Source: a virus
Lineage: Duplodnaviria; Heunggongvirae; Uroviricota; Caudoviricetes
Length of the DNA stretch: 39,394 bases
Strand: one strand, 5' to 3'
Virus record (IMG/VR): IMGVR_UViG_2541047825_000011
Location: 1-39,394 of that record
The notes beneath the pieces were generated by a model. It made no database searches. It saw nothing but the letters and a program-made list of their open reading frames with translations, and was not told the origin of the DNA. The number at the start of each line of letters is the position of its first letter. The stretch's first letter is position 1. Shown here piece by piece: positions 1,290 through 39,394 of the stretch. The translations under genes and the position numbers were made by a program.

Positions 1290-1772
1290 CTATCTGGTCA
1301 AAGTGTCGTACTGTTTTTCGCAGACTCTTCCGGCTTCGGCTGCCCGGTCAGCATACTCTGCCAGTTGTCTGTTTCTCTCGAGAGATTTGCTGAGCACGTC
1401 GGCAAGCAAAACTCCGGTGTCTGCGGCTGACGACCCAGCGCCGACAATGGCGTTATACTGCCTGAGCTGCTCACGGATGGCAAAGAGTTGTTGCTGCAAC
1501 CGGCCAGCGCTAGCGGCAGCATCAAGAGCATCATTGCGCGCCTGGTCGATCCTCTGCTGAGCTTCACGTTCATTGGTCACTTTCTCCTGTTCGTAGTACT
1601 GACGAACTTTTTCTTCTTCGGCTTTGCAGTCTTCTTTCGCCTGCGCATACCCGGCGTCGTACTGACGGATACCGTGTACATTCCAGGCAACAACTCCTGA
1701 TATGACCAGAACAGCAAGCACTGCCACGATAATCAACTGTTTCCAGTATGCTTTTACGAATGCCCAGATCAT
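1290..1772 (-). CDS. i-spanin (Rz-like)
   Basis: N-terminal TM helix ([18 protein letters not shown]), then Q/E/R/A-rich coiled coil; start overlaps the endolysin stop; contains an embedded out-of-frame lipoprotein ORF. Confidence 0.8.
1298..1573 (-). CDS. o-spanin (Rz1-like) lipoprotein embedded in Rz
   Basis: ORF lies wholly inside Rz in another frame; signal peptide with lipobox LAGC; Pro-containing mature part; start may be Met1 (1573) or Met14 (1534). Confidence 0.6.
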   Translation of the reverse strand: MNVKLSRGSTRRAMMLLMLPLALAGCSNNSLPSVSSSGSITPLSALGRQPQTPEFCLPTCSANLSRETDNWQSMLTGQPKPEESAKNSTTL

Positions 1773-3096: not shown

Positions 3097-3316
3097 CGTT
3101 TATTACGCATAACAATCTCCTTACTATTGAAGATTCACACATAATAAACCATTTAAGGATAATAGTTACCTCAAAACGCTGTATTTCTACCTTCTACGGC
3201 AATGAAAATTTCGTTCAGAAAATGGTCTAGTGTACCTCTCAGTCACAATTAAAGAAGAAAGAAGCCGAACTTACTTCGTAATAAGCAAGCCGGCTACTAA
3301 GATTAATCCTCAATAT

Positions 3317-6073
3317 TTAGCTACTTTCAAGCATTGCAAGACGTGATTCTATTTTTTCGATTCTTCTACGCAAATAAGCTGACTCAAGCCATAAACACTG
3401 GTCAGTACGGATACCCCACCTATTTCCAGCCTTGCAAACCAGAGTTCGCTCTTCTGTTTCGTATTCTTCTTCCATCTCAATTTCGACGCCATCCACAACT
3501 TTAGTGATCATCCTTACCGCCATCACTGGCGCGTATTTATCATCCCATTCATCGTAACAGAGAAGGCCAAATCTGGTTCCATCAATCCCATGCGCGAGGA
3601 AAGCGTCTCTCACTTGTTGTGCTATAACACCAAAATGCCAGCGGGCACCATCTCCCTTTTCCCTGACGGCATCAAGCCAGCGAAAAGCTACAATCCTGAT
3701 ATCTCCCCATGCATCCAGAATTGCATCACCTTCATAACCACGAGACATATACAAGCTGAGCTCACTTGTACTAATCGGTTCACTTTTTTCTCTACCATCT
3801 GATGTGTTTATCGAACCGTTCGCAGAATAAACCTGTGCCCATCTAAATGATGGTGCACCAAGAGATTTGCTGTTATCAATAATTGGTGAAAAATTACCTT
3901 TAATGGCAATATTTCCAGAGTCGCCGAATATATTAATAACTGCAGAGTCATCACCATGGTTTTTTACGCTTAAGTTTCTTGATGAAATATTTATATCTTT
4001 GTTATATCCACTAACATTAATCCATCTTTTACCATCAATGTGATGCCCGTAAATATTTCCGTTTGATTGTTCGTCAGGTGACTCTCTAAGAACAATAGCA
4101 TCTGCTCCAGACGACCATTGTATTTTTGTATCTGTAGGCCTCCAGTTCTTTATAATGAACGAACCATCAGTAAACTCCGTTTTTATTTGTCTATTGTCTA
4201 CAAATGCGTCTCTTGGTTTAAACTCACTTGTGTTAACGCTGCTCTGAAGATCAGAAGCAAAAAATCTAAGATTTCCTGTATAACCCTGAGTCTCGGTCAG
4301 GTTATACGCAATCATAATTCCATTTTCAAACTCAGATGATGTTATTTTAACATCACGGCAATCACCAAAAATGCAATTTCCTTTATCAAATGTTGTTTGA
4401 GCTTTGAATTTATCAAACCTTAAATTACGAACAGGGAAACCATCAACCTCTAATGCAAAGGATGCAGGAAGGCCAAAGTATTCTGATGGCTTACCTGATG
4501 TATGATCAAGAGTAGTGGCTACTGTATTCTCAAAAACAGTCCCGCTAAAATTATTACCAATTGACGGAAACCTGATTACACTTATTGTACCTTGTATTTC
4601 AGGAGAAATACCAGATAGTGTGATGTTAGTTCCATCAAATGATGCATCTGAATACGTATATACTAATTCACTGCCAGCAATTTTAAACTGTTTAACTGAA
4701 GTTATTCTCATCGACTTTTTATGTTTAAATGTCACTGAGCTTTCAGTATTACTTACAAGATCAATCTGAGGGCTATTCCTTATCGCGATCCCTGACTGGA
4801 CATAAACGTTATTAAAGTGCGTTTTTTCAGGATTTCCCTTCATTGAAAGGCTCCCGTCATTTTCTGTCAGTAGTAGTCCTTTTACCCTCCAATAGCCGAC
4901 AATCTGTACGTTATCAATAACTGAATCACAGCTATCGTATACATGCAACCCTATATCCCAGTCATCACCCAATGAATAAGAATCAGGGTTATTGTATCCT
5001 TCAATACCATTTTTACTTACCATTATTCTCAGGTTGCGTAACTGTGATGCCCTGTTGATACTAACAGCTACGCTCATGGCTTTTGGTGTAGCAGGAGTAA
5101 CACCTACAGAATCTTCATTTGTAAACTCAGTGAACTTACAAGATATCCCTTCAACAATTTTAACTGGTCTTTCATTAGAGATGTTAAAAAAATATTTGTT
5201 TTTTTCTCCATCACCAGTAAATACAAGATGGGTTCCTTTACTCCAACTTTTTAATAATCTTTCAGGCGCTGGTCTATATGTATCCCAATAATCAATGCCA
5301 TCACCAATTAATGACACTCCAGGAGGCACATCTATGTTCTTAGAAATCATCCATTTACCTGCAGGTATTCTAACGACACTTGCACCAGAATTTATCGCAT
5401 TAATTAACCATTCAGACGCATCAACTTCAAAATTTAATGCAGCATATCTTTGCTCAAACGGAACAAAATCAAGAGCGTTAACGTTATCCCGCATCTTATC
5501 CTGGAACGTTCGGTATACTGCTCCAGAACCATACTGAATAAACCAACCAAAACCACCAACAACTCCGGCGATTGCAGCATCAACATAATTACGCATTGAG
5601 CGATTATTTACAGCATCCTGCTCAAGTGATGGATCTGCAAGGTTAGAAATTCTGTTTTGCTTTGCATCGTAATATTTTGCAAGCAAAGATGGTTTCATCA
5701 ATGCACGTCTGAACCACCCAAAACATTGCTGGATCAGCATCGTCAGGTAGTCAAAAGCATCCTCATGAACTTCGGGGAAAAATTTTCCCTGATTGCGAAG
5801 ATCAGTCTCCTGCACCACATCAAGCACACGCTCTATCGTGATTCGCCAGCCAGCAGCAAGCGGCGACGGAAGAACCACTGCACCGCCACTATAAGTTCCC
5901 GCCCCTGTTACCGTATAACCAGCATCCAGCACTAGTTCTGTTACGTTACCGTTAAGGTCAGACACCTGAACAACCAGGTCGGATTTTTTGAAAATACGGA
6001 AGGTATACGGAAATGATGTCGTAACGCCGTTACCTGTGTATTCGTTGTGGTCAACTTCGGTTGAGACCGTCAT
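3317..6073 (-). CDS. Tailspike: T7 gp17-like N-terminal adaptor domain, central receptor-binding region, C-terminal S74-type intramolecular chaperone
   Basis: N-terminus EYTGNGVTTSFPYTFRIFKKSDLVVQV follows the T7 tail-fibre N-domain pattern; C-terminus SDGREK...RIEKIESRLAMLESS resembles the autoproteolytic chaperone of endosialidase-type fibres; central part is markedly AT-rich. Confidence 0.85.
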   Translation of the reverse strand: MTVSTEVDHNEYTGNGVTTSFPYTFRIFKKSDLVVQVSDLNGNVTELVLDAGYTVTGAGTYSGGAVVLPSPLAAGWRITIERVLDVVQETDLRNQGKFFPEVHEDAFDYLTMLIQQCFGWFRRALMKPSLLAKYYDAKQNRISNLADPSLEQDAVNNRSMRNYVDAAIAGVVGGFGWFIQYGSGAVYRTFQDKMRDNVNALDFVPFEQRYAALNFEVDASEWLINAINSGASVVRIPAGKWMISKNIDVPPGVSLIGDGIDYWDTYRPAPERLLKSWSKGTHLVFTGDGEKNKYFFNISNERPVKIVEGISCKFTEFTNEDSVGVTPATPKAMSVAVSINRASQLRNLRIMVSKNGIEGYNNPDSYSLGDDWDIGLHVYDSCDSVIDNVQIVGYWRVKGLLLTENDGSLSMKGNPEKTHFNNVYVQSGIAIRNSPQIDLVSNTESSVTFKHKKSMRITSVKQFKIAGSELVYTYSDASFDGTNITLSGISPEIQGTISVIRFPSIGNNFSGTVFENTVATTLDHTSGKPSEYFGLPASFALEVDGFPVRNLRFDKFKAQTTFDKGNCIFGDCRDVKITSSEFENGIMIAYNLTETQGYTGNLRFFASDLQSSVNTSEFKPRDAFVDNRQIKTEFTDGSFIIKNWRPTDTKIQWSSGADAIVLRESPDEQSNGNIYGHHIDGKRWINVSGYNKDINISSRNLSVKNHGDDSAVINIFGDSGNIAIKGNFSPIIDNSKSLGAPSFRWAQVYSANGSINTSDGREKSEPISTSELSLYMSRGYEGDAILDAWGDIRIVAFRWLDAVREKGDGARWHFGVIAQQVRDAFLAHGIDGTRFGLLCYDEWDDKYAPVMAVRMITKVVDGVEIEMEEEYETEERTLVCKAGNRWGIRTDQCLWLESAYLRRRIEKIESRLAMLESS

Positions 6074-6574: not shown

Positions 6575-6839
6575 TTACATCGCACTCCTCTTGTGCCATA
6601 GTAATCGGGCACTGGCAAAATCCAGTGCCGGGATTGGCGTCCCGAGTTACTACAGAGGCACATATGCCGCATAAGCGGTTTTTTTTATGTGTAAAGCGCA
6701 CCTATTCTATGGTGGGCTGTGTGGGGGCACCGAAAGGTGCGCCGGGTCCTTTGTAGCCGGTTACGCCAACCCTGCACAGTTCACCACCAACCGATTGGCG
6801 TCGGTAGTGGTGATTAACCTAACTACAAAGGTGATCGCC

Positions 6840-7532
6840 ATGAATACCAAACCTTCCATCTTTTCCTTTGAGTCATCCTGCCAGATCCGTATGTTCATGA
6901 TTGACGGAGAACCTTGGTTTGTCACCAAAGATGTGTGCAATGCTTTGAATATTGATGTTACACAAGCGAGAAAACTTGATAAAAAAGGCTGGAACAAAAA
7001 GGGGCTGTATTCAATACAGACCCCTGGTGGAATACAAGAACTATCCATCGTTTCAGAATCAGGTCTCTACATCCTTATTCTGCGTTGCAAAGAGGCAATG
7101 ACTGAGGGAACGAGAGCATTCAGATTTCTTGAATGGGTTACAGGTGAGGTTCTTCCTCAGATCCGCCGCACCGGAAGTTACATTAAAAACTCGCTCCCGC
7201 AGGAAGAACGCATAAAGATGGTTGCCGACCAGGTAGCCAACGCCACGGCGTCAGCAGTAATGCAGGCGATGAAGATAGAGAACAAAACCTACAGCGCCCC
7301 ACTGAAGCCCGGCTACCGTAGCCTGATTCATTCGCCGTCTGGTGTTCTCGGCCTGACGGAGAACTCACTGCTGATGAATCTGCTGAACAAGTTACAGGAA
7401 GACGGGCACGATGTATCGGGCGCGGCAGCGGAGCTGACCACCATGTTCTGCTACATCGTCGGTGTGAGCAAATGCCTGCGTGATATCCAGACGCACGCGG
7501 AGTACATCAACGACAAAGCAGGGTTCTTCTGA
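6840..7532 (+). CDS. Phage antirepressor with BRO-N type N-terminal domain
   Basis: Track ORF 6687..7532 trimmed to ATG 6840 (GGTGA upstream); N-terminal FESSCQIRMFMIDGEPWFVTKDVCNALNI ... ESGLYILILRCKEAMTEGTRAFRFLEWVTGEVLPQIR matches the Bro-N/antirepressor pattern. Confidence 0.8.
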   Translation: MNTKPSIFSFESSCQIRMFMIDGEPWFVTKDVCNALNIDVTQARKLDKKGWNKKGLYSIQTPGGIQELSIVSESGLYILILRCKEAMTEGTRAFRFLEWVTGEVLPQIRRTGSYIKNSLPQEERIKMVADQVANATASAVMQAMKIENKTYSAPLKPGYRSLIHSPSGVLGLTENSLLMNLLNKLQEDGHDVSGAAAELTTMFCYIVGVSKCLRDIQTHAEYINDKAGFF

Positions 7533-7760: not shown

Positions 7761-8396
7761 ATGCCACAACAACTGCTGAATCCGGCAAAGGTAACTGAGG
7801 TTTTCGCTCATCTGAACGAAACTCCAGACAACCGCGCCCTGTATTCAGAGTTAGTGAACGGCAACGATGTCACATCTGATGTCAAAGGCGTTTCTCTGGC
7901 TCCTGGATACCGCGTTGTCCGTGTAGACGATCGTAAGAAAGGCGAGATTCCACAGGCGCACTTTGAACTGTCATTGATAAATGACCTCACCGAAGAGGTA
8001 GTGTATTACAATCGTGTCATTATCCAGCCTGACAGCTATCTTAACTGCCGTCCTGTCACGCAGATATTGGTATGGAGAACCCAGAAGCCTAAGCATCGTG
8101 CTGTGCTTCATGATTTCGCCGGCATCATCTTCATGAACTACCTCTTGGAACGGTACGATATCATCGTGTCAGATCGCAACCAGACTCATGAAGGCATGTC
8201 GTTCTGGCAGGCTCGCATGTATGACGCACTGGAACTTGGCCTCCACCTCTATGGTTACGACATGATGACATGCGAGCTGATAGAGATGAATAACGAGGAA
8301 GAGCTTGAGAAAGGTGAAACCTGGTTGTGGGGTGATGCGGAAAACTTCCAAAACAGATTGGCCATAATTTCAAAGCATAAGCTGCCAATAAAATAG
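7761..8396 (+). CDS. Orphan protein of unknown function in the accessory island (211 aa)
   Basis: ATG with GAGGTGA upstream; no TM segment and no motif I recognise; own operator-flanked upstream region and a strong terminator. Confidence 0.7.
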   Translation: MPQQLLNPAKVTEVFAHLNETPDNRALYSELVNGNDVTSDVKGVSLAPGYRVVRVDDRKKGEIPQAHFELSLINDLTEEVVYYNRVIIQPDSYLNCRPVTQILVWRTQKPKHRAVLHDFAGIIFMNYLLERYDIIVSDRNQTHEGMSFWQARMYDALELGLHLYGYDMMTCELIEMNNEEELEKGETWLWGDAENFQNRLAIISKHKLPIK

Positions 8397-8403
8397 TTCT
8401 TTA

Positions 8404-8426
8404 AGCCCGCGACGCGGGCTTTTTTG
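8404..8426 (+). terminator. Rho-independent terminator of the + strand island
   Basis: AGCCCGC-gac-GCGGGCT followed by TTTTTTG. Confidence 0.8.
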
Positions 8427-8463
8427 TGTCTGCGGATTCCCGCCCGGGCGGCGGTGGCATTCG

Positions 8464-8490
8464 TTAAAAACAAGGCCGCGAAAGCGGCCT
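8464..8490 (-). terminator. Rho-independent terminator of the leftward virion operon
   Basis: AGGCCGC-gaaa-GCGGCCT hairpin with T-run on the minus strand, directly after the lipoprotein gene. Confidence 0.65.
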
Positions 8491-8502
8491 GTGACATGTC
8501 AC
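8491..8502. repeat. 12-bp perfect palindrome GTGACATGTCAC (copy 1 of 3)
   Basis: Exact copies also at 25648..25659 and 27912..27923; all intergenic. Confidence 0.8.
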
Positions 8503-8505
8503 GAC

Positions 8506-8919
8506 TTATAAAGATGACTGATATTTTACAACTCTGTTCATGGCATCTTTTTTCACCGAGCTGATATCAGTTCTTATTTTGGCTTCGTCATTACTGCTTA
8601 TCATGCTATTAATTTTTTGCACTGACATGCCGTTTCTTTCAGCCATTGCACATACAGCAGCATCGTATGAAGAACTCGCTGCGATGGATATCACCTTGTT
8701 ACACTCAAACACAGCACCTTCAGCAATATCAGATGCCGATGAGGCTGGCTTGGTATAAGTCTTGACGTAGTGATCAATACAACTATCCTTCGCCGTCTTG
8801 GCAAGAGAAAAATCCATTTTAACTTTGTCGCAATATGCCTTATCAACACCGTCATAAACATCATAGGATGTCGAGCAAGCGGATATCAAAAATACCGATA
8901 ACAGCAATAATTCCTTCAT
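8506..8919 (-). CDS. Lipoprotein at the end of the virion operon (candidate superinfection-exclusion lipoprotein)
   Basis: Signal peptide with lipobox LISAC; 137 aa; several Cys in the mature part; last gene of the structural operon. Confidence 0.7.
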   Translation of the reverse strand: MKELLLLSVFLISACSTSYDVYDGVDKAYCDKVKMDFSLAKTAKDSCIDHYVKTYTKPASSASDIAEGAVFECNKVISIAASSSYDAAVCAMAERNGMSVQKINSMISSNDEAKIRTDISSVKKDAMNRVVKYQSSL

Positions 8920-8928
8920 TGTTGTTCC

Positions 8929-11403
8929 TTATTGCGGAGTGACATCCTGAGGTCGCCACCAGTATGTCTGGTTAAACTCTTTCTTTGAACGTTGCTCCAT
9001 TTTACGCAAATAGCCTGGTGAAAAATACTCCTGCATCTGGTTAAAGATCATGTGATCGAGAGCCGCCTTTAAGTACCAGAGATTCGCACCTGGCATCAGA
9101 CCTTTCCCCAGCTTAACCAGATCACCACCAGTCTGCTCATTCTTCCCTTCCACAGCATTTAACGGTATGCCCTGAGCAATCTTCACTACGTCATCAACCA
9201 GACCAGCTACCGGGCCAAGCATCGACGCCAACGCGCCGCTTCCGTACCTGGTGTGGTCAGAGAAAAGAAAATCACCATACAACCCTGCACCACCACCTTT
9301 TAAAAATGCATTTATCCAGAATTTAACCATGTTGTCACCGGTCATTTCTTTTGGATTTCTCCCATTAATAAGATCAGTAATCTGCATGGAAAGAGCACCA
9401 AGCATGGTTGTGCTTGCTAAAAACGTTGCTATATATGCTGCACGCCCACCAGCAGACGGCATCCCCATAGCTCTATGCCAGTGACGCATAACTACCGAGA
9501 TAGGGAACGATTTAAACAGGAAAACACTTCTCGTTAATTCACCTTTCCATGTTCCACGCTGAAGACCAGACCCTACGAACATCTGTTCACGTGCGCCCGG
9601 TGTAATAACAGCCATATCAACTTCTTCAGTTACGGCACCGAGCAGTTTACGCATTGCCTCAAATTTCACGCGTTCAGGCTCACCAAGATGTTTAACTGCT
9701 GAATCAGGGATACGCATAATGCTTTCCGGTGTCAGCATCGTATTATTACCGTTCCCCCAGTCCTCCTGTTGCGCCAGCTTCCATACGCTCCAGTCTGTGT
9801 CAGTAATCCCTTTGCTTTTCAGGATACGAAAATCAGAGTCATCGAGGCTACGAAGGTCTGGTGTCCGTGACACTACTTCTCCCAGGCTTCCCATCATGGT
9901 TACGCCATAGGCGCGCTTGTGCGCATCTGACCATGCTGTAAGCCCACTGGCACGCATTACCGCCGTTGCCGCCCAACGAGACACAGACGGCCCCATATTA
10001 TCCATCGCCCAGCGGTTAACGCTGCCAAGTAGAGATTCCATCGCCAGGCCAGCGCGGCGCGCCCGCGCAAGCTCAGTACGGTTCGTTGGGTCCATAGCTT
10101 CAAGCTGGTTGCGAAATAACTGGTTCATTGGAAGGTTGGTAACCTTCGCAGACAGATACATGGTTCCAAGATCAGAGAACGATGACAGCAACGCGGATCC
10201 GAGTCTGCTGGCAACCAGCCAGTTGCGGATATTGTCAGACCATCGCGCGATGTGCGGATTCGCTACAGGCTGTGTTTTTCCGGAAATAAAGTTGTACAAG
10301 TTCTCTGTTTTGTTCGCCAGACGCTCGACGCTACCGGTTTTACTCGGGTTAGCTGTTGCCGTTTCTGCCTTAACCTGATCAAGAAGAGAGCGGAAAACAT
10401 GATCGGGGTTTGGGCCATATGTTTCCACCAGCGCAATATCTTTACTGATACCTTCCAGGTGACCGACCATGATTTCCCATAGAGAGCGATCGCCATAAAG
10501 TTGCTGATATTGCAGATAGGAATCTGCATCTTTGAAATGTATCTGTCGTGATGCATTACCACGGTTAGCACGTGCGCCGGAAATTCGCATTCCGGTATCA
10601 GTAAGCTTATTCAGCCCACCAGTAGCGATCGTGTTATAAGCCTCTCCAAGAAATTCAGACAACTCGGCATCGTTCATCAGTTGTCCATCGGCTCGGGTAT
10701 AATATTTGCGATCCAGCTTACCTATAACATCGCTAACCCACTTATCCTTTGATACCGCCCCAACCTTTTCCATAGAATGATGTTGAGGGATCCCCCAGTT
10801 TTCGAGATAGCCAATGTCACCACCAGCATCATTAAACCGGCGGCGCAGTAGCTCTGTCACTTCTCTCCACGCCTTAGCACCTTTTCTTGCTTTAGCATTG
10901 CCAGTATTTTGCCCTCGCATTTCATATACCAGATCACGCACGCCCGCTTCATCTTCAAACAGGCCAAAAAAGCGAGGATCAACTGCTTCAAATGCCTCCT
11001 GCAATTGACTCAATGCATAATCACGGGTGGCTTTTGTTCTGGATTCAACAGAGAGGAAATTAGATTTACCGTCTGCATTAAAAGCTATAGTACGGTTAAG
11101 AGCGCCAAGTTTCCCATCAGCCCCTTGATAGCTATTGATAAATTTATCCAATCTCTGACGCGCGGCTATAGTGAGAGCCACACGACGTTTCTTTAATGCC
11201 GCTTCTCGCTGTAATTCTTCAGATGCCAATTGTGCTGCTCGATATAGCCGCTCTGATTCGGAAAGTTGTCGCCACGACATCGGGTCATCACGAGCAATGG
11301 AGCGCATATTTCGATAAATGCGGTCTTCAATGTTCTGTATTTCTCGCGCCGTTAACATGCGCTGCGCCGCCTGCTGGACAGCTTGTATACATTCCTGTCT
11401 CAT
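8929..11403 (-). CDS. Internal virion (ejection) protein, large; T7 gp16-like position
   Basis: 824 aa; last large ORF of the virion operon; assignment by size and synteny only. Confidence 0.6.
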   Translation of the reverse strand: MRQECIQAVQQAAQRMLTAREIQNIEDRIYRNMRSIARDDPMSWRQLSESERLYRAAQLASEELQREAALKKRRVALTIAARQRLDKFINSYQGADGKLGALNRTIAFNADGKSNFLSVESRTKATRDYALSQLQEAFEAVDPRFFGLFEDEAGVRDLVYEMRGQNTGNAKARKGAKAWREVTELLRRRFNDAGGDIGYLENWGIPQHHSMEKVGAVSKDKWVSDVIGKLDRKYYTRADGQLMNDAELSEFLGEAYNTIATGGLNKLTDTGMRISGARANRGNASRQIHFKDADSYLQYQQLYGDRSLWEIMVGHLEGISKDIALVETYGPNPDHVFRSLLDQVKAETATANPSKTGSVERLANKTENLYNFISGKTQPVANPHIARWSDNIRNWLVASRLGSALLSSFSDLGTMYLSAKVTNLPMNQLFRNQLEAMDPTNRTELARARRAGLAMESLLGSVNRWAMDNMGPSVSRWAATAVMRASGLTAWSDAHKRAYGVTMMGSLGEVVSRTPDLRSLDDSDFRILKSKGITDTDWSVWKLAQQEDWGNGNNTMLTPESIMRIPDSAVKHLGEPERVKFEAMRKLLGAVTEEVDMAVITPGAREQMFVGSGLQRGTWKGELTRSVFLFKSFPISVVMRHWHRAMGMPSAGGRAAYIATFLASTTMLGALSMQITDLINGRNPKEMTGDNMVKFWINAFLKGGGAGLYGDFLFSDHTRYGSGALASMLGPVAGLVDDVVKIAQGIPLNAVEGKNEQTGGDLVKLGKGLMPGANLWYLKAALDHMIFNQMQEYFSPGYLRKMEQRSKKEFNQTYWWRPQDVTPQ

Positions 11404-11408
11404 TTAAT

Positions 11409-13211
11409 TTAACCTCTCAAGAAACACGCCACAGCGACATCAAACAGGCTGGAATCCTGTATTGCCTGCTCACTTTCCCTGTTCGCTTCATCCAGTACTT
11501 CACGCGCACTGCGCGATTGTGGATTACCATCATCATCCAGCACGGTGATTATCATGTCAGGAGATTCAAGCAGCGAGTCTTCAGCTATACGCAGATCAAT
11601 ATCTCCTGCCGGATCTGCCATCATTTTTTGTTCTGTCTGTTGCAATATCTTACCGGGCTCAAAAGGAGCTACTTCGTCTGGCGTCCTGACCTCTGCTGTT
11701 TTATAGAATGAAACAGCCTGAGCATTAAGTTCACTTTCTGCCTGCTGTCGTCGTGCCAGTTCTGCTCGAGCTTCAAAAAACTGACCGCCAGGCTCGTGCG
11801 GTGCCAACGCGTTACGGGAAAACTCCAGGCGTTCTTGTGCCTGCCGGATTCGTTGATCAATATCGCGAAGTCTGGCCTGTTTATCTGATCGAGCACGAGA
11901 CAAAGCTTTACCGCTACCGGTTGGCTCTTCTGCAAGAATTTGTGCACGCTGTTCAGTGAGATTTTCAATAATTCGTTGGCTATTAGCGATTTCAGACTGG
12001 TAAACCTGTCTATCTCCACGCGGCAAAAGCTGCGCGGCCTGTTCTTCAAGCAACCGATTTTCTATAGCGCGCGCCGTTATTCCATCATCTACAGATGACA
12101 GAGCCTCATTAACTGCCTGAGACAGCAGACTCTTGCGCCCAGGAATTTCACTGAAAGATGCAGACTCAACAATGCTGGCAACGTCTACAGGTCTCCCCTG
12201 GCTAACATCAGACATAGCTTTTCGCAGAGCCTGAATGTGAGAATTACGCGAAAGCACGTTGATCGGCACGCCAGGAGCAATATCAATTTCAGCATGATGA
12301 GCGGCATTCGCCGCCAGTGCAGCATCGATATCAACTGGTGAAAAATTTGGTGTGCTTGTAGACTCGCCGCGAGAGTTAATAAATCTGCCGACACCACCAA
12401 ACGCCACCCCAAGAACAGCATCAATAGCAATTGCCTGTCGATCCAACACATCATACTGGTTAGCCATTTCGCTATAGCCACCATCACGAAGCGTTTTTGC
12501 AGTAAGCCCACGCTGTGCCATACCGAACGCAATATTTGTACCTGCGGCATAGGCAATATCTGGCGTTGCACGTACTGCTGTTGCTGCGGCGCGTCGCACT
12601 GAACTCTCACCCGTCCGTGCAAGCTGAGCCGCCACACCTTCCGCCAGCGCACCACCAGCACGTAACCCGAGGCTCATAGGGATCAGTGTTCCGGCACCAG
12701 CAGTAATGCCCTGCACTAATCCCGCTTCCTGCGCCGTCCTGAAATCAACACCCTGTGCTGTCAGCCGTTCAAACTCAGAAAAACCCTGTAGCGAAGTTAC
12801 CGCCGCTGCACCTCCGACAGGACCACCGAGCGTTGTACCGACAACAGCCTGCCCGCCCATATCGAACAACCCATAAAGAACCTGCCCGGCGGTTCCGGTT
12901 GTCGCGGCATCAGGCGTCAGCCGCTTAACCTGCTGCTCTGCTAGTTTTCTCTGCTCAGCAATGTATGAAACTGAAGTGTCATTGAGCGAGGTGTTTTCGT
13001 TAACAAACTGAGCAATCGGGGATACGATTTTATCCATCCCTGCCCATAGCAACTGATCTGGCTTTGCCACCAGCCCGGAGTACAAACCAGACAATGCCGC
13101 TCCTACAGCATTGTCGAAAAAACCAACATCGCTGTTAAAGCCAACTGGATTTGATGCTGCTTCGTCAAGCTGCTGATTCTGGTTTACTGGATTAAGGCCA
13201 AAGTAACTCAT
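11409..13211 (-). CDS. Internal virion (ejection) protein; T7 gp16-like position
   Basis: 600 aa, Ala/Gly-rich; contiguous with flanking virion genes; function from synteny. Confidence 0.55.
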   Translation of the reverse strand: MSYFGLNPVNQNQQLDEAASNPVGFNSDVGFFDNAVGAALSGLYSGLVAKPDQLLWAGMDKIVSPIAQFVNENTSLNDTSVSYIAEQRKLAEQQVKRLTPDAATTGTAGQVLYGLFDMGGQAVVGTTLGGPVGGAAAVTSLQGFSEFERLTAQGVDFRTAQEAGLVQGITAGAGTLIPMSLGLRAGGALAEGVAAQLARTGESSVRRAAATAVRATPDIAYAAGTNIAFGMAQRGLTAKTLRDGGYSEMANQYDVLDRQAIAIDAVLGVAFGGVGRFINSRGESTSTPNFSPVDIDAALAANAAHHAEIDIAPGVPINVLSRNSHIQALRKAMSDVSQGRPVDVASIVESASFSEIPGRKSLLSQAVNEALSSVDDGITARAIENRLLEEQAAQLLPRGDRQVYQSEIANSQRIIENLTEQRAQILAEEPTGSGKALSRARSDKQARLRDIDQRIRQAQERLEFSRNALAPHEPGGQFFEARAELARRQQAESELNAQAVSFYKTAEVRTPDEVAPFEPGKILQQTEQKMMADPAGDIDLRIAEDSLLESPDMIITVLDDDGNPQSRSAREVLDEANRESEQAIQDSSLFDVAVACFLRG

Positions 13212-15721
13212 TGCGGAATATCTCCGGAGAATCTCTGACGCTTCTGTGTCAGATCAAGAACAACAGGAGAACCATCATCTTTCAGCAGATAACCAGTACC
13301 AAGTTTCACCAGGTACTGACTATCGCCGTAACTTTGCAAACCATACTGACCAGGCGGTGTTTTTATCCCGGTGCCGACAACTTGTTCATTCCAAGCCTGA
13401 TTAACCTGCTTATCGAATTGCTCTGCAGACATTCCCCACGGCAAAAGGACATTCCCCATTCCGTTATAGTCATGCACGCCACCTGTAGCTACGTTAACAG
13501 CCTGTTTCCAGATATCAGTGTCAATTTCGCCTGATATCACGCCTTTTTTCGCCATCACACCAGCGTAATAGTCCTTTGCGATCTCGTATGCCATTGATGC
13601 CCCCTGAGCATCACCAGCAAATGCATCCTTCACCATGTCAGAAAACTCAAGGCGAAGATCAGCATCTTTAGGCATCGGAATACCTTTCGCATCATCAGTA
13701 CCTTTACGAGCCGCCGCGCCAGCAAGAATTGTCTGCGCAGCGGTTTCAGGAGACACGGAAACATCCGGATTAAACCAGTTTTTTTCTGCCAAAATACCAC
13801 CAGGCTTGTCCATCAGTATCCCGGCAACGGCAGCAGATGGAGCGTTGGCACTGATCTGCTGTAGTGCTGACATATACACCTGCCCACCACCAGTGCTCTG
13901 CCTGATGGTATCGAGATATGCTGCCTGTTGGGAAACTGGAGCATCACGAAAGAAAACACCGATCTGATTGGCCTCGTCTTTGGAAAAGAACGTCAGTGGA
14001 GTGCCATATGACTTAGCAAGATCACTGACCTGAGCGGCACGCAAGGCAACGCTCTGTCCAAAGTTATCCTTATTGCTCATGTCGATAGGCTTTGCCTGTC
14101 CGGAGGCAAGAGAGAACTGCACAGGATCCGACTGCCGCTGCTTTATCACCTGATTTGCAGCCGAAACAACGTTGTCATAAAGAGCTGCGCGAGACGCATA
14201 ACCCTCCCCTGTCTCACCGGTATCCGGGCGTAATTGCTCAACATATGCTGTAATGCTGCTTGTCGGCATGTTGCGGAAAGAGCCTATATACTGTCCGGCG
14301 ATTTGCGTATTTCTGAACTCGGTATATCGCAGGTTTCCTTCTCTGACTCCATAAGCTGCAATAAAATCAGCCTCACCAGGTGGGTTAGGAAATTCAACGC
14401 CACGCATATACGCAGCTGTCGCATCGCGAACCTGGCTGTCAATCATCGTTTTATATTCAGCCTGCTGCTGCCGACGCAGTTGATCAGCCTGTCGCATAAA
14501 ACTTGCCTGCGCCTCAGGAGATGCCGCATCGAATGCTGCATTACCGGTATAGCGTTTGGTGTTGGTTGGAATTGTTGATAAACCAAGTGCTGCACTGACA
14601 CCAGCAGTTAACTGCTGATCACTGTATGGCTGGCTACCGTTCTCATGATGGATAATGGCTGCACAAAGCGCCTTCAGGGTATCAGGATTAGATGCATCGA
14701 GAGGCTCATCAGCAGAAACGCCAAGTTGTTCGCACACTGCTTTGATATACGACATAGTGTCATTTTTATCAGTAGGCGGTGCCCAGCGATTAATTATCTC
14801 GCTGACGGTATCAATACCCTGCCTCTGATACGACATCAGGTTCCGCCCTAATGCACGAATCCCGTGTTCAGGTGTTTCGAATTTAGCAAATCGACCATCA
14901 TCACCGGTCTGGCCTACCCACGGATTAGTTTTGCTGTATTCGAGATTTCCTGGGTTATTGTTGCGTATGCCGCGGGCACGCTCGGAAGAGTCACTATCTG
15001 CTACAGCACGGCGAGCTCCAGCAGCAGTATCACTTAACTCGCCATTACTTTGGATGAATGCGGTCGCATTGTTTGCCGACCACTGGGACAATGCGGCATC
15101 AGCAACCTTCTCTTTAAACTCGATTTTCTTGGCCTGTATTTGCTCGTCGCTCCAGCCATGCGCAATGCCGTAATCCTCAATTTGCTGGAAAGTTTGCTTA
15201 TTAGCCAATACGTATGCGGCGTTGTCGCCATACAATGCTGCGGCATTTTTACCATTGTTCAGCAGCGTCGCCTGAAACTGGCCTTCTTCGTAGGCATTTA
15301 TTTGCCCTATCTCGTGCCGCCCGGCCTGCGTAGTGAACTGAATACGCTGCTGCTGCGCCTGCTGCATGAAAGCATTACGAGCTTGTTCATCCGGCAGCGA
15401 CATAGCCAGTTGCTCGACCTGGGCATCAAACTGCTGCGTATACTCCTGACCTTTTCCAATAGCATTTTTCCCTTTCAAGTTAAGCAAACCTGTTTCAGGG
15501 TTATTCAGCAGATCGCTACTTATCTGGCTTAAGCTAAGAGAAGCATCCTGAGCCATAGCAACATTCGCACGCTGTTTTGCCTGCGCAATAATACCTGCAT
15601 ATTGCTCTGCAACATCGCCAAGTACATCACCGACATTTGGTGTCTGAAACGATGAGAATCCCTGCGTCGAAATCCCTCTGCTCTGAACCTGACGTCCCGA
15701 TGTTGTTGGTACAACTGGCAT
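13208..15721 (-). CDS. Internal virion protein; T7 gp15-like position
   Basis: 837 aa; contains a conserved-looking block RNNNPGNLEYS...RWAPPTDKNDT of unknown function; overlaps the downstream gene start. Confidence 0.55.
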   Translation of the reverse strand: MPVVPTTSGRQVQSRGISTQGFSSFQTPNVGDVLGDVAEQYAGIIAQAKQRANVAMAQDASLSLSQISSDLLNNPETGLLNLKGKNAIGKGQEYTQQFDAQVEQLAMSLPDEQARNAFMQQAQQQRIQFTTQAGRHEIGQINAYEEGQFQATLLNNGKNAAALYGDNAAYVLANKQTFQQIEDYGIAHGWSDEQIQAKKIEFKEKVADAALSQWSANNATAFIQSNGELSDTAAGARRAVADSDSSERARGIRNNNPGNLEYSKTNPWVGQTGDDGRFAKFETPEHGIRALGRNLMSYQRQGIDTVSEIINRWAPPTDKNDTMSYIKAVCEQLGVSADEPLDASNPDTLKALCAAIIHHENGSQPYSDQQLTAGVSAALGLSTIPTNTKRYTGNAAFDAASPEAQASFMRQADQLRRQQQAEYKTMIDSQVRDATAAYMRGVEFPNPPGEADFIAAYGVREGNLRYTEFRNTQIAGQYIGSFRNMPTSSITAYVEQLRPDTGETGEGYASRAALYDNVVSAANQVIKQRQSDPVQFSLASGQAKPIDMSNKDNFGQSVALRAAQVSDLAKSYGTPLTFFSKDEANQIGVFFRDAPVSQQAAYLDTIRQSTGGGQVYMSALQQISANAPSAAVAGILMDKPGGILAEKNWFNPDVSVSPETAAQTILAGAAARKGTDDAKGIPMPKDADLRLEFSDMVKDAFAGDAQGASMAYEIAKDYYAGVMAKKGVISGEIDTDIWKQAVNVATGGVHDYNGMGNVLLPWGMSAEQFDKQVNQAWNEQVVGTGIKTPPGQYGLQSYGDSQYLVKLGTGYLLKDDGSPVVLDLTQKRQRFSGDIPQ

Positions 15722-15733
15722 CTTATTATCCCC

Positions 15734-16273
15734 TTATCGACCGGTTGGAGTGCCAACAGCAGCAGAAATCGGCGCAGCCTTCTGAGAGAACGGGCTCCAC
15801 GTTCCGCCGCCCATCTGGTATGCACCGTATGCTTTTAGTGGTGCCGTTAACAAAGTGCTGGTCATCGATGATTTAGCAGCCGACTGAGCAGCAGCCCCCT
15901 GTGCCTGAGCATTCATTCCCTGAACCTGATACCCATATGCCTCACGCTGAGCATTATTCACTGTCGTTAACGCATCAAGAGTACCGAACTGAGCATTATC
16001 CGCAAAAACGTCAAGAGCTGTTCCGCTACTTAATTCCGCACCGGTAGCCCCCATAGTGGCCGCCGTAGTGCCTGAGCGTTGACGCATTTCACGACGACGC
16101 TGATCCGCTTCAATATTCCCACGATTGATTGAATCCTGTGCCTGAGCTTCAGCAATTTCAGCATTCCGATCAGCTATGGCTGACTGGTATTTTGCCTGCT
16201 TGCTCTGGCTGTACATTGACGCGGCTGTGGATGCCACTGTGACGGCAACCAAAGCGATGGCTGGGTTACACAT
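15734..16273 (-). CDS. Internal virion protein; T7 gp14-like position
   Basis: 179 aa; N-terminal hydrophobic helix then Ala/Gln-rich region. Confidence 0.5.
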   Translation of the reverse strand: MCNPAIALVAVTVASTAASMYSQSKQAKYQSAIADRNAEIAEAQAQDSINRGNIEADQRRREMRQRSGTTAATMGATGAELSSGTALDVFADNAQFGTLDALTTVNNAQREAYGYQVQGMNAQAQGAAAQSAAKSSMTSTLLTAPLKAYGAYQMGGGTWSPFSQKAAPISAAVGTPTGR

Positions 16274-20186: not shown

Positions 20187-20522
20187 TTACACGCCCAGTT
20201 CTTTACGCTTATCTGCGATCTTCTCGCGGAGCGTTTCGGCTTTGGCGTTATGGTGTGGCTTCTCGTTAAAGAGCAATTCGTACTCTTCACGGAGCTTATC
20301 CAGTTCACCATCATCTGACACATCGTTGATGATTTTGGTGCTGGTTGCTGCCATAGACACCTTTCCTGCTACCTTTGCTTTTGCCTGTCTGGCTGCATCG
20401 TTAACAGGTTCCAGTGCGCTACCAGGCTCACCTTCGTATTCGATTTCTGCCCCCTCCGGCCACAGTGTGTTATGGATATGAGAGAGGCGCAGAACGCGGT
20501 ATCTTGGTTTCTCACCTGACAT
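20187..20522 (-). CDS. Hypothetical virion protein
   Basis: Track ORF trimmed to the ATG at 20522 with AAGGTGA upstream; acidic helical protein. Confidence 0.5.
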   Translation of the reverse strand: MSGEKPRYRVLRLSHIHNTLWPEGAEIEYEGEPGSALEPVNDAARQAKAKVAGKVSMAATSTKIINDVSDDGELDKLREEYELLFNEKPHHNAKAETLREKIADKRKELGV

Positions 20523-20532
20523 CGAAATCACC

Positions 20533-20970
20533 TTAACCAGTTACTTTTGAGCGGATCGGGTACGGCGTATTGGCATCAACATCAAGATTGATACCAGCAG
20601 TGAATTCGCCAGCCGTTAGTGGGCCAGTTGCGACGGAGTAGTTAACACGCAGATATCGCTGAACACCGGCAGGAACCTTTGCAGAAACAACTCGTTTACC
20701 TGCTGTCAGGGCGGTCTTTGCCAGTGCGCCACTATCATAAATAGTGGTCCATGAGCTGTTATTCTCACTCGTCTGCAACTGGATGTTTACAGTTGCATCA
20801 CCGCTTGCCGCGGCGGCTGTGTTAACCAGCGCCCAAAACTCAAGCGGGTAACCCACGCCGATATCACGACGTTTTCCGTCAATTGGACCGAGATCGATTA
20901 CGTCAGTAGAAGCCGCGGTATTCGTAACCGCCTGAGCTTCGGAGAACATCAACAGTTTGTCGGTGATCAT
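20533..20970 (-). CDS. Hypothetical capsid-associated protein (possible decoration protein)
   Basis: 145 aa, immediately downstream of the capsid gene; beta-rich composition. Confidence 0.5.
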   Translation of the reverse strand: MITDKLLMFSEAQAVTNTAASTDVIDLGPIDGKRRDIGVGYPLEFWALVNTAAAASGDATVNIQLQTSENNSSWTTIYDSGALAKTALTAGKRVVSAKVPAGVQRYLRVNYSVATGPLTAGEFTAGINLDVDANTPYPIRSKVTG

Positions 20971-21021
20971 CTTCTTTCTCCATTAGTGGGCCTGTTGCGG
21001 CCCACAGGTTAATAACAGGCG

Positions 21022-22014
21022 TTACACCACGCGGGCTTCTGTTTCCAGAAGCGCATCAGTTTCACGAATTGGTACACCACGGAATGAAGTCCACCACTCG
21101 CCTTCTGTCTCTTTTACGCTGATCGCCAGAGATGTTTTCTCCAGAGATTGCAGATCAAGAGCCTGGCCTACAGTGCGGTTCATGTAGAACACTGGGCGCC
21201 CCATGCCACGGTTTGGAATGCGATGCAGTGCTTTAACCATCAACTTCGCAATATTTGCGGCAGAGGAAGGTTCTGAAAGATTGCTGACATCGATGTTTGC
21301 AATGCGAACAACATAACGCCAGTCACGCAGAGCAAGTCCGTTGTCCCATTTGTAATGGGTGCGATAGCCTTCGTACTTGCCGCCATTAGCATCTTCCAGT
21401 GTCACCTGGCCTTTATCTTCCATCTGGATGCCAGCCTTCTGCCCTTTCGGGAAGATGCCATGCACGGTGTTTTCGCCCCACACCACTAACCAGATTGAGG
21501 TGTTATCTGTACCCGTGCCACCAGCATCAATGATGTTCTGAGCATTACCCGCAGACAGGCTGGAATAGCGGGAGGACAGTCCCATAAACTGCTGAGGGTT
21601 AACGCTGGAATCACCATAAAACAGCGTCTGCGCCATCTGCTGATTCATCGCTTCAATAAATGCGCGGTCTTCAGACAGGCGGAATTCAGCGGTATTGCCG
21701 TTCAGATCAGCCAGTGACTTATCGACTTCAGCATAGGTTTCCAGCATGCCAACGGAATCGGTTACCTGCACTGTGGTTGATTTGCTTGGCTGTACGCCAT
21801 AGTTCAGCAAACGCCAGGTAGCTGAAGGTAAACCAGAACGAATGGTGGTTCGGTGTCCGGTAGGAAGGTTCCCTTCGACAAAAGGCATATCCTGAAGGAT
21901 CGGGTTAGTTTGACCGAGAAGCTCGATAATCTTATCGACTTTCCCGTTTGGATCGACGCGCTTACCCCAGTCAGCCAGCGTTAGCGCAGTTAAGCCTTTA
22001 ACAGCCATTGTCAT
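21022..22014 (-). CDS. Major capsid protein
   Basis: 330 aa; directly follows the scaffold gene; stem-loop GTGGGCC-tgttgc-GGCCCAC downstream. Confidence 0.8.
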   Translation of the reverse strand: MTMAVKGLTALTLADWGKRVDPNGKVDKIIELLGQTNPILQDMPFVEGNLPTGHRTTIRSGLPSATWRLLNYGVQPSKSTTVQVTDSVGMLETYAEVDKSLADLNGNTAEFRLSEDRAFIEAMNQQMAQTLFYGDSSVNPQQFMGLSSRYSSLSAGNAQNIIDAGGTGTDNTSIWLVVWGENTVHGIFPKGQKAGIQMEDKGQVTLEDANGGKYEGYRTHYKWDNGLALRDWRYVVRIANIDVSNLSEPSSAANIAKLMVKALHRIPNRGMGRPVFYMNRTVGQALDLQSLEKTSLAISVKETEGEWWTSFRGVPIRETDALLETEARVV

Positions 22015-22022
22015 TTCCTCTC

Positions 22023-22724
22023 TTATTTGCCATAGAGCACTTCGGCCGCACTACGCTGGCCTTCATTACCACCGGTGACCATGCCATCTTCAGACATCGC
22101 CTTTCCGATTTTCACGAACGTTTTGACCAGATCAGGGTGATTACCCAGCCCGGTGGTGTTCAGATATTCTTTGAGTTCAGGTGTCCCGAACTGGTCAAGC
22201 GCACGCTGTGCGGCGCTAAGGTTAGAAATCAACTTGTCGCCACCGATTTCTTTGTCAGCTTTTACATCCGCAGCCCACTGCTCGGTTGTTTTCTGCCAGG
22301 CTTCTGCCTGGCGCTGCTGAACACCTGCCAGAATCTTCGGATAAGCATCAACCAGCTTTTGCGCTTGCTCGTTGGTCAGGTTAAGTTCTCGCGCCACCGG
22401 CTCGAATTCCTTCAACGCTTCTGTATCCAGCTCTACGCCTTCGGCAGCCTGAAACTCGTACTTCTCAGGCGCACCCTCTGGTTTATCGCCGTCCTTTTTT
22501 TCATCCTGCTTATCGTTTTCAGGCTTTTTGTCATCAGCAGGTTTATCGCCATCAGCAACAGGTTGTGGCTTATCACCTTCCTGTTGTGATGGATCACCAA
22601 CTGGAGCAGGGTTATCACCTGCAGGCGCTGACGGTTCTGACGCAGCCGGAGCTGCTCCACCATCGACTGGTTGCTCATTGCAAAGACGGCGATACAGCAA
22701 ACGCTCAAATAAATTCATGATCAC
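22023..22724 (-). CDS. Scaffolding protein
   Basis: 233 aa; strongly acidic/Lys-rich low-complexity N-half (DGDKPADDKKPENDKQDEKKDGDKPEG), helical C-half; upstream of the capsid gene. Confidence 0.7.
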   Translation of the reverse strand: MIMNLFERLLYRRLCNEQPVDGGAAPAASEPSAPAGDNPAPVGDPSQQEGDKPQPVADGDKPADDKKPENDKQDEKKDGDKPEGAPEKYEFQAAEGVELDTEALKEFEPVARELNLTNEQAQKLVDAYPKILAGVQQRQAEAWQKTTEQWAADVKADKEIGGDKLISNLSAAQRALDQFGTPELKEYLNTTGLGNHPDLVKTFVKIGKAMSEDGMVTGGNEGQRSAAEVLYGK

Positions 22725-23017
22725 TCCTGTTCACTGGCCTCTTTGGCCATCTTCAAATACTGTTCAGGGCAATGCGCCATAACGCGCTGAAACAGTTCCA
22801 GCGCCAGATTGCGTTGCCCCTCATTAAATGCCATTGCCATAGCATCCATCGGAGAGATAGCGGAAAACACACGGCCTTTCTCCAGCACCGACCAGACAAC
22901 GCGACGCCCCTGTTCACTGCTCATGACAAAGCGAATGTCATCAATTTCACGCTGTGCCATGTCACGTTGCTTACGGGCGTTTTCTTCTTTCAGTTGATCG
23001 TCTTCGTAATCTGTCAT
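22721..23017 (-). CDS. Hypothetical small head-module protein
   Basis: 98 aa; overlaps the portal stop and scaffold start. Confidence 0.5.
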   Translation of the reverse strand: MTDYEDDQLKEENARKQRDMAQREIDDIRFVMSSEQGRRVVWSVLEKGRVFSAISPMDAMAMAFNEGQRNLALELFQRVMAHCPEQYLKMAKEASEQE

Positions 23018-38143: not shown

Positions 38144-39394
38144 TTATTCCCCCGCCATCCACTTCTCAAACTTCGACGGGGAGAACGGAATCAGATCCGT
38201 ATGCTCCCCGTCAATCCATGAATCAATCATATCGGCCCACTGCTGCAACATGTAGGCGCGCTGTCTGGCGTATTCCGCTTTGTTATATACGGCGCGCACA
38301 CCTTTCTGCTCATGTGCCAGAGCCTTTTCAATCCAGTCTGAAGGATAACCAGCCTCATGCAATAACGTACTGGCTGTACGGCGCATATCATGTACGGTGA
38401 AGTCCTGAATATGCTCACCATCTTCATTTATTATTTTCACCGTTCTGTCGATCAGAGAGTTCAGCGCGGCATTAGATAATGGCTTCCGGAAGTTGTAACG
38501 ACCAGGAACCAGATATTCACTTCCACCAGCGCACATCTGCAACCCGACCAATATATCCTGTGCCTGTTTAGGCAGGTAAATAACATGCGCCCGGCTTCCC
38601 TTCATGCGGTCTGAAGGAATTGTCCATGTCCATTTTTTAAAATCTATTTCGTCCCACGTTGCATTGGTGAATTCGCCTTTACGAACCATAGTGATAAGCA
38701 CCAGCTTTAAAGCCATTTTCATAGTGCCCATAGCACCAATGGCATCCAGCGTGCGGAAGAACAGACCAATTTCTTCTGGTGTAAGTGTTCGCTCTCGTGG
38801 TTTAAATATGGCGATAGACGAAGGTTTAATGTCAGCAGCAGGATTAAACAAACCATGACCACGGTCATTGGCATGACGGTATACGCTGCTGATGATCTCC
38901 CTGGCCTGCACTGCTGTTGCCCGGCCGCCGCGTTCGACAATCCGGTCACACAAATCACGAACCATCGATGTGGTAATTTCAGCCATCATTTTGTTACCAA
39001 GAACAGGAAGTATGTCACGGTCGATCACCGCCTGCTTCATTGCGCGGGTACTGTCAGCCAGGATGACGTGTTTCATATAACTGTCGGTATGTACCGCAAA
39101 CGTCTCGGCACCACGAATCTTTTTGATACCGTCACGTTTAGCCGCAGCCGGTGACTGGCCTGCTTTAAGCAGCTTCTTTGCAGCAATCAGTTCTTCTCGC
39201 GCTTCTGCCAGGCTGATACCGTCACGCCCATACTGCCCAATTACCAGTGTTTCGCGGCGACCGTTGATACGGTAGTCATAGCGAAACGAGACCGTACCTG
39301 ACGTAAGCACAGCTACATACAGCCCGTCACGATCGGAGACCTTGTACAGTTTGTCCTGCGGCTTGAGGTTTTTTAATTTTGTATCGGTAAGCAC
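38144..39394 (-). CDS. int: Tyrosine integrase (P4-type)
   Basis: 416 aa; N-terminal TDTKLKNLKPQDKLYKVSDRDGLY arm-binding pattern; C-terminal HDMRRTASTLLHEAGY and RAVYNKAEY consistent with the R..HxxR..Y catalytic set; GTG start on the last three bases of the window. Confidence 0.9.
   Translation of the reverse strand: MLTDTKLKNLKPQDKLYKVSDRDGLYVAVLTSGTVSFRYDYRINGRRETLVIGQYGRDGISLAEAREELIAAKKLLKAGQSPAAAKRDGIKKIRGAETFAVHTDSYMKHVILADSTRAMKQAVIDRDILPVLGNKMMAEITTSMVRDLCDRIVERGGRATAVQAREIISSVYRHANDRGHGLFNPAADIKPSSIAIFKPRERTLTPEEIGLFFRTLDAIGAMGTMKMALKLVLITMVRKGEFTNATWDEIDFKKWTWTIPSDRMKGSRAHVIYLPKQAQDILVGLQMCAGGSEYLVPGRYNFRKPLSNAALNSLIDRTVKIINEDGEHIQDFTVHDMRRTASTLLHEAGYPSDWIEKALAHEQKGVRAVYNKAEYARQRAYMLQQWADMIDSWIDGEHTDLIPFSPSKFEKWMAGE

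Follow-up and report, generated by a model that had tools for sequence, protein, structure and literature searches.

A mobile lipoprotein gene in a hypervariable slot behind the ejection-protein genes of an epsilon15-like prophage, and its possible role in exclusion

The stretch of DNA considered here, the window, comprises all 39,394 nucleotides of the IMG/VR virus record IMGVR_UViG_2541047825_000011 and consists of an Escherichia coli chromosomal segment followed by a complete Uetakevirus (epsilon15/phiV10-like) prophage. At positions 8506-8919 its minus strand carries the gene that is the subject of this study, an open reading frame (ORF) with an ATG start for a prolipoprotein of 137 amino acids. 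The original prediction, made from the letters of the sequence, had described the product as a lipoprotein with the lipobox LISAC, encoded as the last gene of the virion operon behind the large internal proteins, and had proposed it as a candidate superinfection-exclusion factor. Coordinates, length and lipobox were borne out by the ORF and the lipobox rule. The terminal position was likewise correct, since the ORF is followed by a terminator-like hairpin and T-run (8490-8473, minus strand) that ends the minus-strand operon, lies inside a flank conserved among relatives (8429-8504) and matches terminators annotated in phiV10 and epsilon15. The convergent plus-strand gene at 7761-8396 has a terminator-like hairpin of its own (8403-8421, plus strand).

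On the upstream side the lipoprotein gene directly adjoins the gene of an 824-amino-acid gp17-like internal virion (ejection) protein (8929-11403, minus strand; PHROG 684, "virion structural protein"). At the junction (8920-8931, minus strand) the AAGGA Shine-Dalgarno sequence of the lipoprotein gene overlaps the TAA stop codon of the gp17-like gene (8929-8931), and the ATG follows this stop after a gap of 9 nucleotides, a spacing of +9 that is also found in most of the alleles occupying the same slot in relatives. A consensus scan, which a weak promoter may escape, gave no sigma-70-like site at 8920-9600 on the minus strand, the sole nearby match lying inside the ORF. Since no promoter was detected upstream, the lipoprotein is predicted to be expressed from the late transcript; the gene would thus be co-transcribed with the late genes, to which it is probably also translationally coupled.

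The protein begins with a predicted signal peptide of 14 residues, MKELLLLSVFLISA, followed by Cys15 as the predicted site of lipid modification (codon 8875-8877; signal peptide and cysteine together 8875-8919, minus strand). With Lys2, an uncharged hydrophobic region and the motif ISAC ending in Cys15, this N-terminus agrees with a rule of the PROSITE PS51257 type, which we applied to six family members. All six (the window protein and five homologues) conform to the rule and none has Asp at position +2, while Pfam LPAM_1 was matched by one family member. In the Lol pathway, Asp at +2 causes retention in the inner membrane, and lipoproteins with other residues at this position are exported to the outer membrane. 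The window protein has Ser at +2 and is without the Asp retention signal, so that under this sorting rule it is predicted to reside in the outer membrane.

The mature lipoprotein comprises 123 amino acids (13.3 kDa, isoelectric point 6.75). To call it Cys-rich, as had been done, was an overstatement (four of 122 residues), but the conserved cysteine pattern behind this description is real: besides Cys15, the residues C30, C47, C73 and C90 are invariant in all homologues, down to 26% identity, and at this depth of alignment the only other invariant positions are Met1, the lipobox cysteine, Asp26 and Ser99. The AlphaFold2 model (mean predicted local distance difference test score 85) is all-helical, with long helices at residues 24-55 and 74-96 and no transmembrane (TM) helix past the signal peptide. 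In every member the cysteine positions obey i+j = constant (30+90 = 47+73 = 120 in the window protein), a register that two staples joining antiparallel helices should produce. Alignment and model together point to disulfides C30-C90 and C47-C73, a pairing that would fit an oxidising periplasmic location.

The gene occupies a variable cassette (8505-8924), as the DNA of relatives aligns at 97-100% identity up to about position 8504 and again from 8925, and not between. A megablast search with positions 8300-9100 against 50,697 phage records (INPHARED) matched only the flanks (8429-8504 and from 8925) and never the ORF, and tblastn with the lipoprotein found nothing in the same records. Among the 548 complete E. 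coli genomes that match a probe covering 8400-9000, 22 contain the ORF, and in most of the others the match is confined to the flanks. The G+C content is about 0.41 in the ORF compared with about 0.48-0.50 in the flanks. Relative to the allele of locus L105, the lipoprotein gene has a synonymous divergence (dS) of 0.51, whereas the adjoining gp17 gene is saturated between the same two genomes. Furthermore, the same slot holds a 55%-identical copy in a Cedecea prophage with a gp17 homologue of only 24% identity, and a 27%-identical copy in another distant relative. The contrast between flanks and ORF, the composition, the dS values and the distant copies at the same place all indicate a cassette moving between phages into one fixed slot, and we conclude that the gene is a horizontally swapped, optional accessory of epsilon15/phiV10-type prophages. 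It is also a real gene under strong purifying selection: the window copy and a 95%-identical allele of the Citrobacter/Enterobacter type differ by 32 synonymous and 8 non-synonymous substitutions, which corresponds to a ratio of non-synonymous to synonymous rates (dN/dS) of about 0.05.

Carriers of the lipoprotein gene share 20 substitutions in gp17 relative to most non-carriers, concentrated in a hydrophobic C-terminal block (residues 608-714). Since three non-carriers (L020, L021 and L026) have a similarly window-like gp17 (98.9-99.4% identical overall), this association is read as clonal linkage and not as functional coupling. In E. coli VE-T9 (L003, locus 20501-22975), the lipoprotein gene is intact and adjoins a gp17-like gene that contains an internal stop and is annotated as a pseudogene.

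To survey the content of the slot, we took the ORF that comes first behind the gp17-like gene in each of 80 relatives from IMG/VR (L016-L095) whose gp17 is 92-100% identical. A two-TM peptide of 57 amino acids was present at 42 loci, a two-TM peptide of 46 amino acids (phiV10p21 type) at about 26, a TM protein of roughly 62 amino acids at seven, and the 137-amino-acid lipoprotein of the window at ten, one of these copies (L024, IMG/VR) having a premature stop after residue 120; an unrelated lipoprotein of 126 amino acids and a Sec-signal protein of 102 amino acids were each found at a single locus. Relatives with 96-99% identical virion genes thus carry unrelated small membrane proteins at the same position, and epsilon15 gp18, phiV10p21 and phiv142-3 Orf12 are small membrane proteins too. 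The 102-amino-acid protein (L095, L124) has an ordinary Sec signal and no lipobox; it is a short homologue of lipoprotein residues 34-85 (hhalign probability 92%, E = 5e-7 against the central part of the family) and retains only the cysteine pair equivalent to C47/C73.

The same pattern of two-TM, lipoprotein or Sec-signal proteins was found in most Enterobacterales prophages among 51 diverse genomes (L111-L161), and in the diverged relatives there is often an overlap or a direct contact between the slot gene and the stop codon of gp17 (gaps of -4 to +2). It does not extend to the Pseudomonas relatives, where a soluble protein of 112 amino acids is encoded instead, nor to several alphaproteobacterial relatives, in which a large tail-fibre-like ORF directly follows the gp17-like gene. 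A hypervariable position that almost always encodes an envelope protein bears the signature of an arms-race locus and not of a housekeeping lytic function. Searches of the literature on Uetakevirus exclusion, epsilon15 gp18 and qnrD-plasmid lipoproteins gave nothing on the lipoprotein or the slot, and as far as they show, this envelope-protein slot of epsilon15-like phages is previously undescribed.

A structural role in the virion, which the original prediction had put forward as its alternative, has only the position at the end of the virion-protein operon to recommend it and is rejected here. No sequenced phage isolate contains the gene, not even those whose structural genes are 96-99% identical, homologues exist on plasmids and islands that have no virion genes, and one natural allele (that of L024) is truncated. 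In addition, the virions of tailed phages assemble in the cytoplasm, which a lipoprotein exported through Sec and Lol leaves. We therefore regard the lipoprotein as a non-virion protein and give a structural function practically no chance.

The family is small. An exhaustive HMMER search of 1.84 billion representatives yielded only seven proteins at E <= 0.001, six of which are family members or fragments, so that there are no deeper relatives from which a function could be borrowed; 22 proteins were retrieved in a profile search of 5.8 billion sequences. Members of the family occur in three settings. The first is formed by Uetakevirus-like prophages of Escherichia, Enterobacter, Citrobacter and Cedecea, where the gene is always in the slot behind gp17. 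The second consists of integrative islands of Providencia and Morganella (with integrase, AlpA, DUF3987 and YagK/YfjJ), in which the cargo beside the homologue varies, comprising type I restriction-modification, an OLD-family nuclease with a UvrD-like helicase, SIR2 or large helicase systems. At the island loci L009-L011 and L100-L102 the homologue has a constant position (8001-8420 of each), and paired ThiF-domain proteins and antirestriction modules were seen as further variable cargo. The third setting is that of non-mobilizable Col3M plasmids of 2.4-4 kb from Proteus and Providencia (L103, NZ_CP135992.1; L104, NZ_CP066834.1; L096-L099), whose homologues are 26-28% identical and have the same lipobox and cysteine spacing. 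On a 2.4-kb Col3M plasmid the homologue is one of only two ORFs, and a 3.7-kb metagenomic variant (L097) has an extra pentapeptide-repeat gene that we take to be qnrD-like.

That the family is carried by three unrelated types of mobile element, including tiny Col3M plasmids and islands of Morganellaceae, would suit an envelope factor of benefit to the host, either an orphan immunity protein against periplasmic toxins (type VI amidase or muramidase effectors, bacteriocins) or a serum-resistance or fitness lipoprotein similar to Bor, Iss or TraT. Small disulfide-bonded helical periplasmic proteins are also typical of the immunity proteins for type VI amidases. However, the Pfam families of Bor and TraT were unlisted at E <= 1 for any of eight members, and no match to Rap/Tai or to any immunity family was obtained in Pfam, NCBIfam, PDB or fold searches. 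The phage copy, promoterless by scan and coupled to a late gene, would be odd for a fitness gene of lysogenic conversion, and the slot is tied to the ejection-protein operon across diverged phages. We consider a host-benefit function somewhat unlikely.

Other searches for a known family gave little. Apart from PHROG 8691, whose function is unknown, Pfam, PHROGs, NCBIfam and PADLOC returned nothing but noise below threshold, for instance Linker_histone and T4_Spackle; no match to the lipoprotein was found among PDB sequence profiles, and fold searches gave no match to a known family, including Llp, Cor, Rtp45 and Spackle. PADLOC had no match for the window protein or for P0020, and for P0021 and P0022 only single weak matches (E 0.006-0.015, 13-14 bits), the models in question being unrelated and much longer. 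An identity with T4 Spackle (PF25676) was considered and dismissed, as the match scored 10.7 bits (E = 0.82) where the cut-off is 27, covered residues 1-56 including the signal peptide and was obtained with one of eight members. A match to an Rz-like PHROG (E = 0.13) was confined to residues 1-18, the region of signal peptide and lipobox.

The surrounding genes place the lipoprotein within the prophage. Going by the annotation of the E. coli locus that it matches, the chromosomal segment contains yfgH/yfgI-like genes at 1-1071, and the integrase (38144-39394) lies at the prophage end. The ejection-protein block starts with a T7_gp14-family internal virion protein of 179 amino acids (15734-16273, minus strand) and continues with a gp15-like internal protein of 837 amino acids (13208-15721, minus strand) and a gp16-like internal protein of 600 amino acids (11409-13211, minus strand); together with the 824-amino-acid protein, the latter two are the equivalents of epsilon15 gp15, gp16 and gp17. 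Homologues of the gp15-like protein in relatives bear an SLT lytic transglycosylase domain, and Pfam detects none in the window copy.

Beyond the lipoprotein gene, the convergent plus-strand gene at 7761-8396 encodes a protein of 211 amino acids of unknown function (PHROG 1349, no Pfam match). In other carriers its place is taken by a YafO-family toxin and a small ORF, which makes this a second variable accessory region. It is followed by a Bro-N antirepressor-like gene (6687-7532, plus strand), the positional counterpart of P22 immI/ant. As the Bro-N domain begins at residue 67 of this 281-amino-acid ORF and homologues in relatives have 195-237 amino acids, the ORF is probably over-extended at its N-terminus, an internal Met near residue 52 being the likelier start. 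A tailspike or tail fibre of 918 amino acids with a C-terminal Peptidase_S74 chaperone domain is encoded at 3317-6073 (minus strand). The statement that the lipoprotein gene precedes the tailspike locus is therefore only loosely true, as the two are 2.4 kb apart and separated by the two plus-strand genes for the 211-amino-acid protein and the antirepressor. Between the tailspike and a holin-like gene only about 220 non-coding bases (3097-3316) remain, a position at which phiV10 and E. coli VE-T9 have an O-acetyltransferase and epsilon15 has wzy and an inhibitor. The window as a whole yielded no homologue of oac, wzy or gtr, and as the lipoprotein elsewhere co-occurs with either type of module, a role in O-antigen conversion was discarded.

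The window holds a complete lysis cassette with two holin-like genes, an endolysin and an i-spanin (DUF2514; 1290-1772, minus strand), in whose gene an o-spanin-like lipoprotein ORF with the lipobox LAGC is embedded (1298-1573). The cassette thus appears to have its own lipoprotein, and an identification of the 137-amino-acid protein as o-spanin was abandoned on this ground. More generally, the protein might help the lytic cycle by acting on the envelope of its own cell, through lysis timing, disruption of the outer membrane or neutralisation of leaked muralytic or membrane-active ejection proteins. This would agree with a co-oriented gene 9 nucleotides downstream of a late gene, with the lack of a promoter in the scan and with the slot genes of diverged relatives, which often overlap or abut the gp17 stop. 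Yet the lysis cassette elsewhere in the window is complete, the slot is hypervariable and filled by unrelated replacements in phages with 96-99% identical late genes, and the homologues on plasmids and islands are without lysis context. We find such a helper function hard to credit and rate it as improbable.

Uetakeviruses adsorb via O-antigen-specific tailspikes, and we know of no protein receptor for them. Lysogens of the group as a rule alter this O-antigen (oac in phiV10; wzy and an inhibitor in epsilon15). The lipoprotein occurs together with tailspikes of 918, roughly 700 and 1070 amino acids, and with an acyltransferase module, a Wzy module or neither; in view of this variety it is not matched to the specificity for the primary receptor.

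The exclusion lipoproteins known so far, Llp, Rtp45 and Cor, act on the protein receptors FhuA and LptD, have about 6-7 kDa and are encoded beside the gene of the receptor-binding protein (PMC9586334, PMC12685063). For such factors it has been stated that they also prevent unproductive adsorption to the fragments of lysed cells (PMC12685063). The window protein resembles them in being a phage lipoprotein, predicted to be held by a short tether at the inner leaflet of the outer membrane, and a function in exclusion, including protection from debris, is plausible. The original prediction had gone further and had suggested a block of the phage receptor in the lysogen after the manner of Llp or Cor. 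The protein would then attach, from the periplasmic side, to an outer-membrane protein serving as secondary or terminal receptor, alter its surface loops and so stop docking, as known exclusion lipoproteins do with FhuA and LptD (PMC9586334, PMC12685063). The predicted topology and short tether would allow this, and protection from debris, as reported for such factors (PMC12685063), would suit a late-expressed gene. Several observations speak against it. At 13.3 kDa the protein is about twice the size of Llp or of mature Rtp45 (about 6 kDa; PMC12685063); it is all-helical with four conserved cysteines and has no sequence or fold likeness to these factors. Whereas Llp, Rtp45 and Cor come from siphophages, the window gene adjoins the ejection genes of an O-antigen-binding podophage and does not lie beside the gene of the receptor-binding protein; no promoter for expression in the lysogen was detected; adsorption is by O-antigen tailspikes, of which several different ones accompany the lipoprotein; and the two-TM peptides encoded by other slot alleles, being inner-membrane peptides, would be unable to mask an outer-membrane receptor. 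The proposed receptor block is consequently not upheld, and we judge this mode of action to be quite unlikely.

A closer positional parallel is offered by P22, like the phage of the window of a temperate, O-antigen-specific podophage type, whose annotated gene order is that of the ejection genes 7-20-16, sieA, mnt/arc/ant, the tailspike and gtrABC. P22 SieA blocks DNA delivery, and escape mutations map to the ejection proteins gp16 and gp20 (PMC10883804). In both phages a gene for a non-structural envelope protein thus follows the ejection genes and precedes the antirepressor and the tailspike. SieA itself comes in several sequence types whose mutual identity is below 30%. There are also clear differences: SieA is a multi-pass inner-membrane protein whose gene lies on the opposite strand, possesses a promoter of its own and is expressed in the lysogen, whereas the window protein is a predicted outer-membrane lipoprotein whose gene runs in the same direction as the late operon and for which no promoter could be detected. 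A tblastn search with SieA against the window gave no match.

Two further comparisons may be drawn. T4 Spackle, an inhibitor of the tail-associated lysozyme gp5, is likewise a small periplasmic phage protein; it is helical, contains a disulfide and blocks penetration after adsorption. The parallel extends to the virion-borne lytic transglycosylase domain that the phage group of the window carries in the gp15-like proteins of relatives. In contrast to the window protein, Spackle is not a lipoprotein and is encoded by an early gene. The gene also resembles lambdoid morons such as HK97 gp15 and lambda bor in being an extra envelope-protein gene of deviating G+C content that is mobile between phages. 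As in morons, it is present or absent between conserved flanks, departs from its surroundings in composition and is exchanged horizontally. Classical morons, however, bring a promoter and a terminator with them and are expressed in the prophage state; for the window cassette the scan detected no promoter of its own for prophage expression, and the cassette reuses a conserved ribosome-binding site and terminator and shows no Bor homology. For the time being, the protein is best filed as a member of an uncharacterised lipoprotein family borne by mobile elements.

The fixed linkage of the slot to the ejection operon and the gene order shared with P22 sieA lead us to favour a block of genome delivery after adsorption. 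In our tentative interpretation, to which we assign a probability of roughly 40%, the lipoprotein would be a periplasmic exclusion factor anchored in the outer membrane that acts on genome delivery once the O-antigen has been bound, and not a mask of the Llp/Cor type. After export by Sec the protein would receive its lipid at Cys15 and be cleaved by LspA, and a tether of about eight residues would keep the helical bundle of 120 amino acids near the membrane, its two long antiparallel helices being stapled by two disulfides made by DsbA. Bound in this way, the bundle would most likely hinder the delivery of genomes by incoming phages, the putative target being either an outer-membrane component used by ejected proteins or the ejected gp14/gp15-type proteins themselves, so that the lipoprotein could represent an outer-membrane-side counterpart of the inner-membrane SieA of P22. 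During lytic growth it may shield the infected cell and keep progeny from ejecting into debris, while action in lysogens would require read-through or an undetected promoter.

Several points weigh against this interpretation. The generic helical bundle of the model points to no binding partner; no upstream promoter was found by the scan and the gene adjoins a late gene, unlike the prophage-expressed sieA, cor and bor; and every family and fold search was negative, with no experimental or homology link to any exclusion protein. The association with defence islands is weak, because the gene is constant there while the cargo varies, and it could be a core gene of these islands. Carriage by non-mobilizable plasmids fits any host-benefit function equally well. 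The superinfection-exclusion proposal of the original prediction accordingly holds in part: exclusion is the most economical reading of an accessory role in the envelope and has the positional parallel of P22 sieA, but the link is an indirect one. A bolder version, which we regard as unlikely, would see a new family of mobile-element exclusion lipoproteins that jam the trans-periplasmic ejection channel of podophages at its outer-membrane end, and in the slot a dedicated "entry-immunity" locus whose two-TM, lipoprotein and Sec-signal alleles each target a different layer of the envelope.

If the exclusion function does not hold, the gene would be an ordinary uncharacterised moron. If it does, the few phage exclusion lipoproteins known would be joined by one of a structurally new class, their range would be extended from siphophages with protein receptors to O-antigen-specific podophages, and those steps of podophage genome ejection that take place at the outer membrane and in the periplasm, which are poorly understood, would become accessible to genetics. 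The slot, with at least six unrelated alleles among 80 close relatives, constitutes a natural library of small envelope proteins for screening. Finally, the homologues on qnrD-type Col3M plasmids and on islands suggest a function that is useful to mobile elements generally, and this bears on the host range of phages for therapy in Proteus, Providencia and E. coli.

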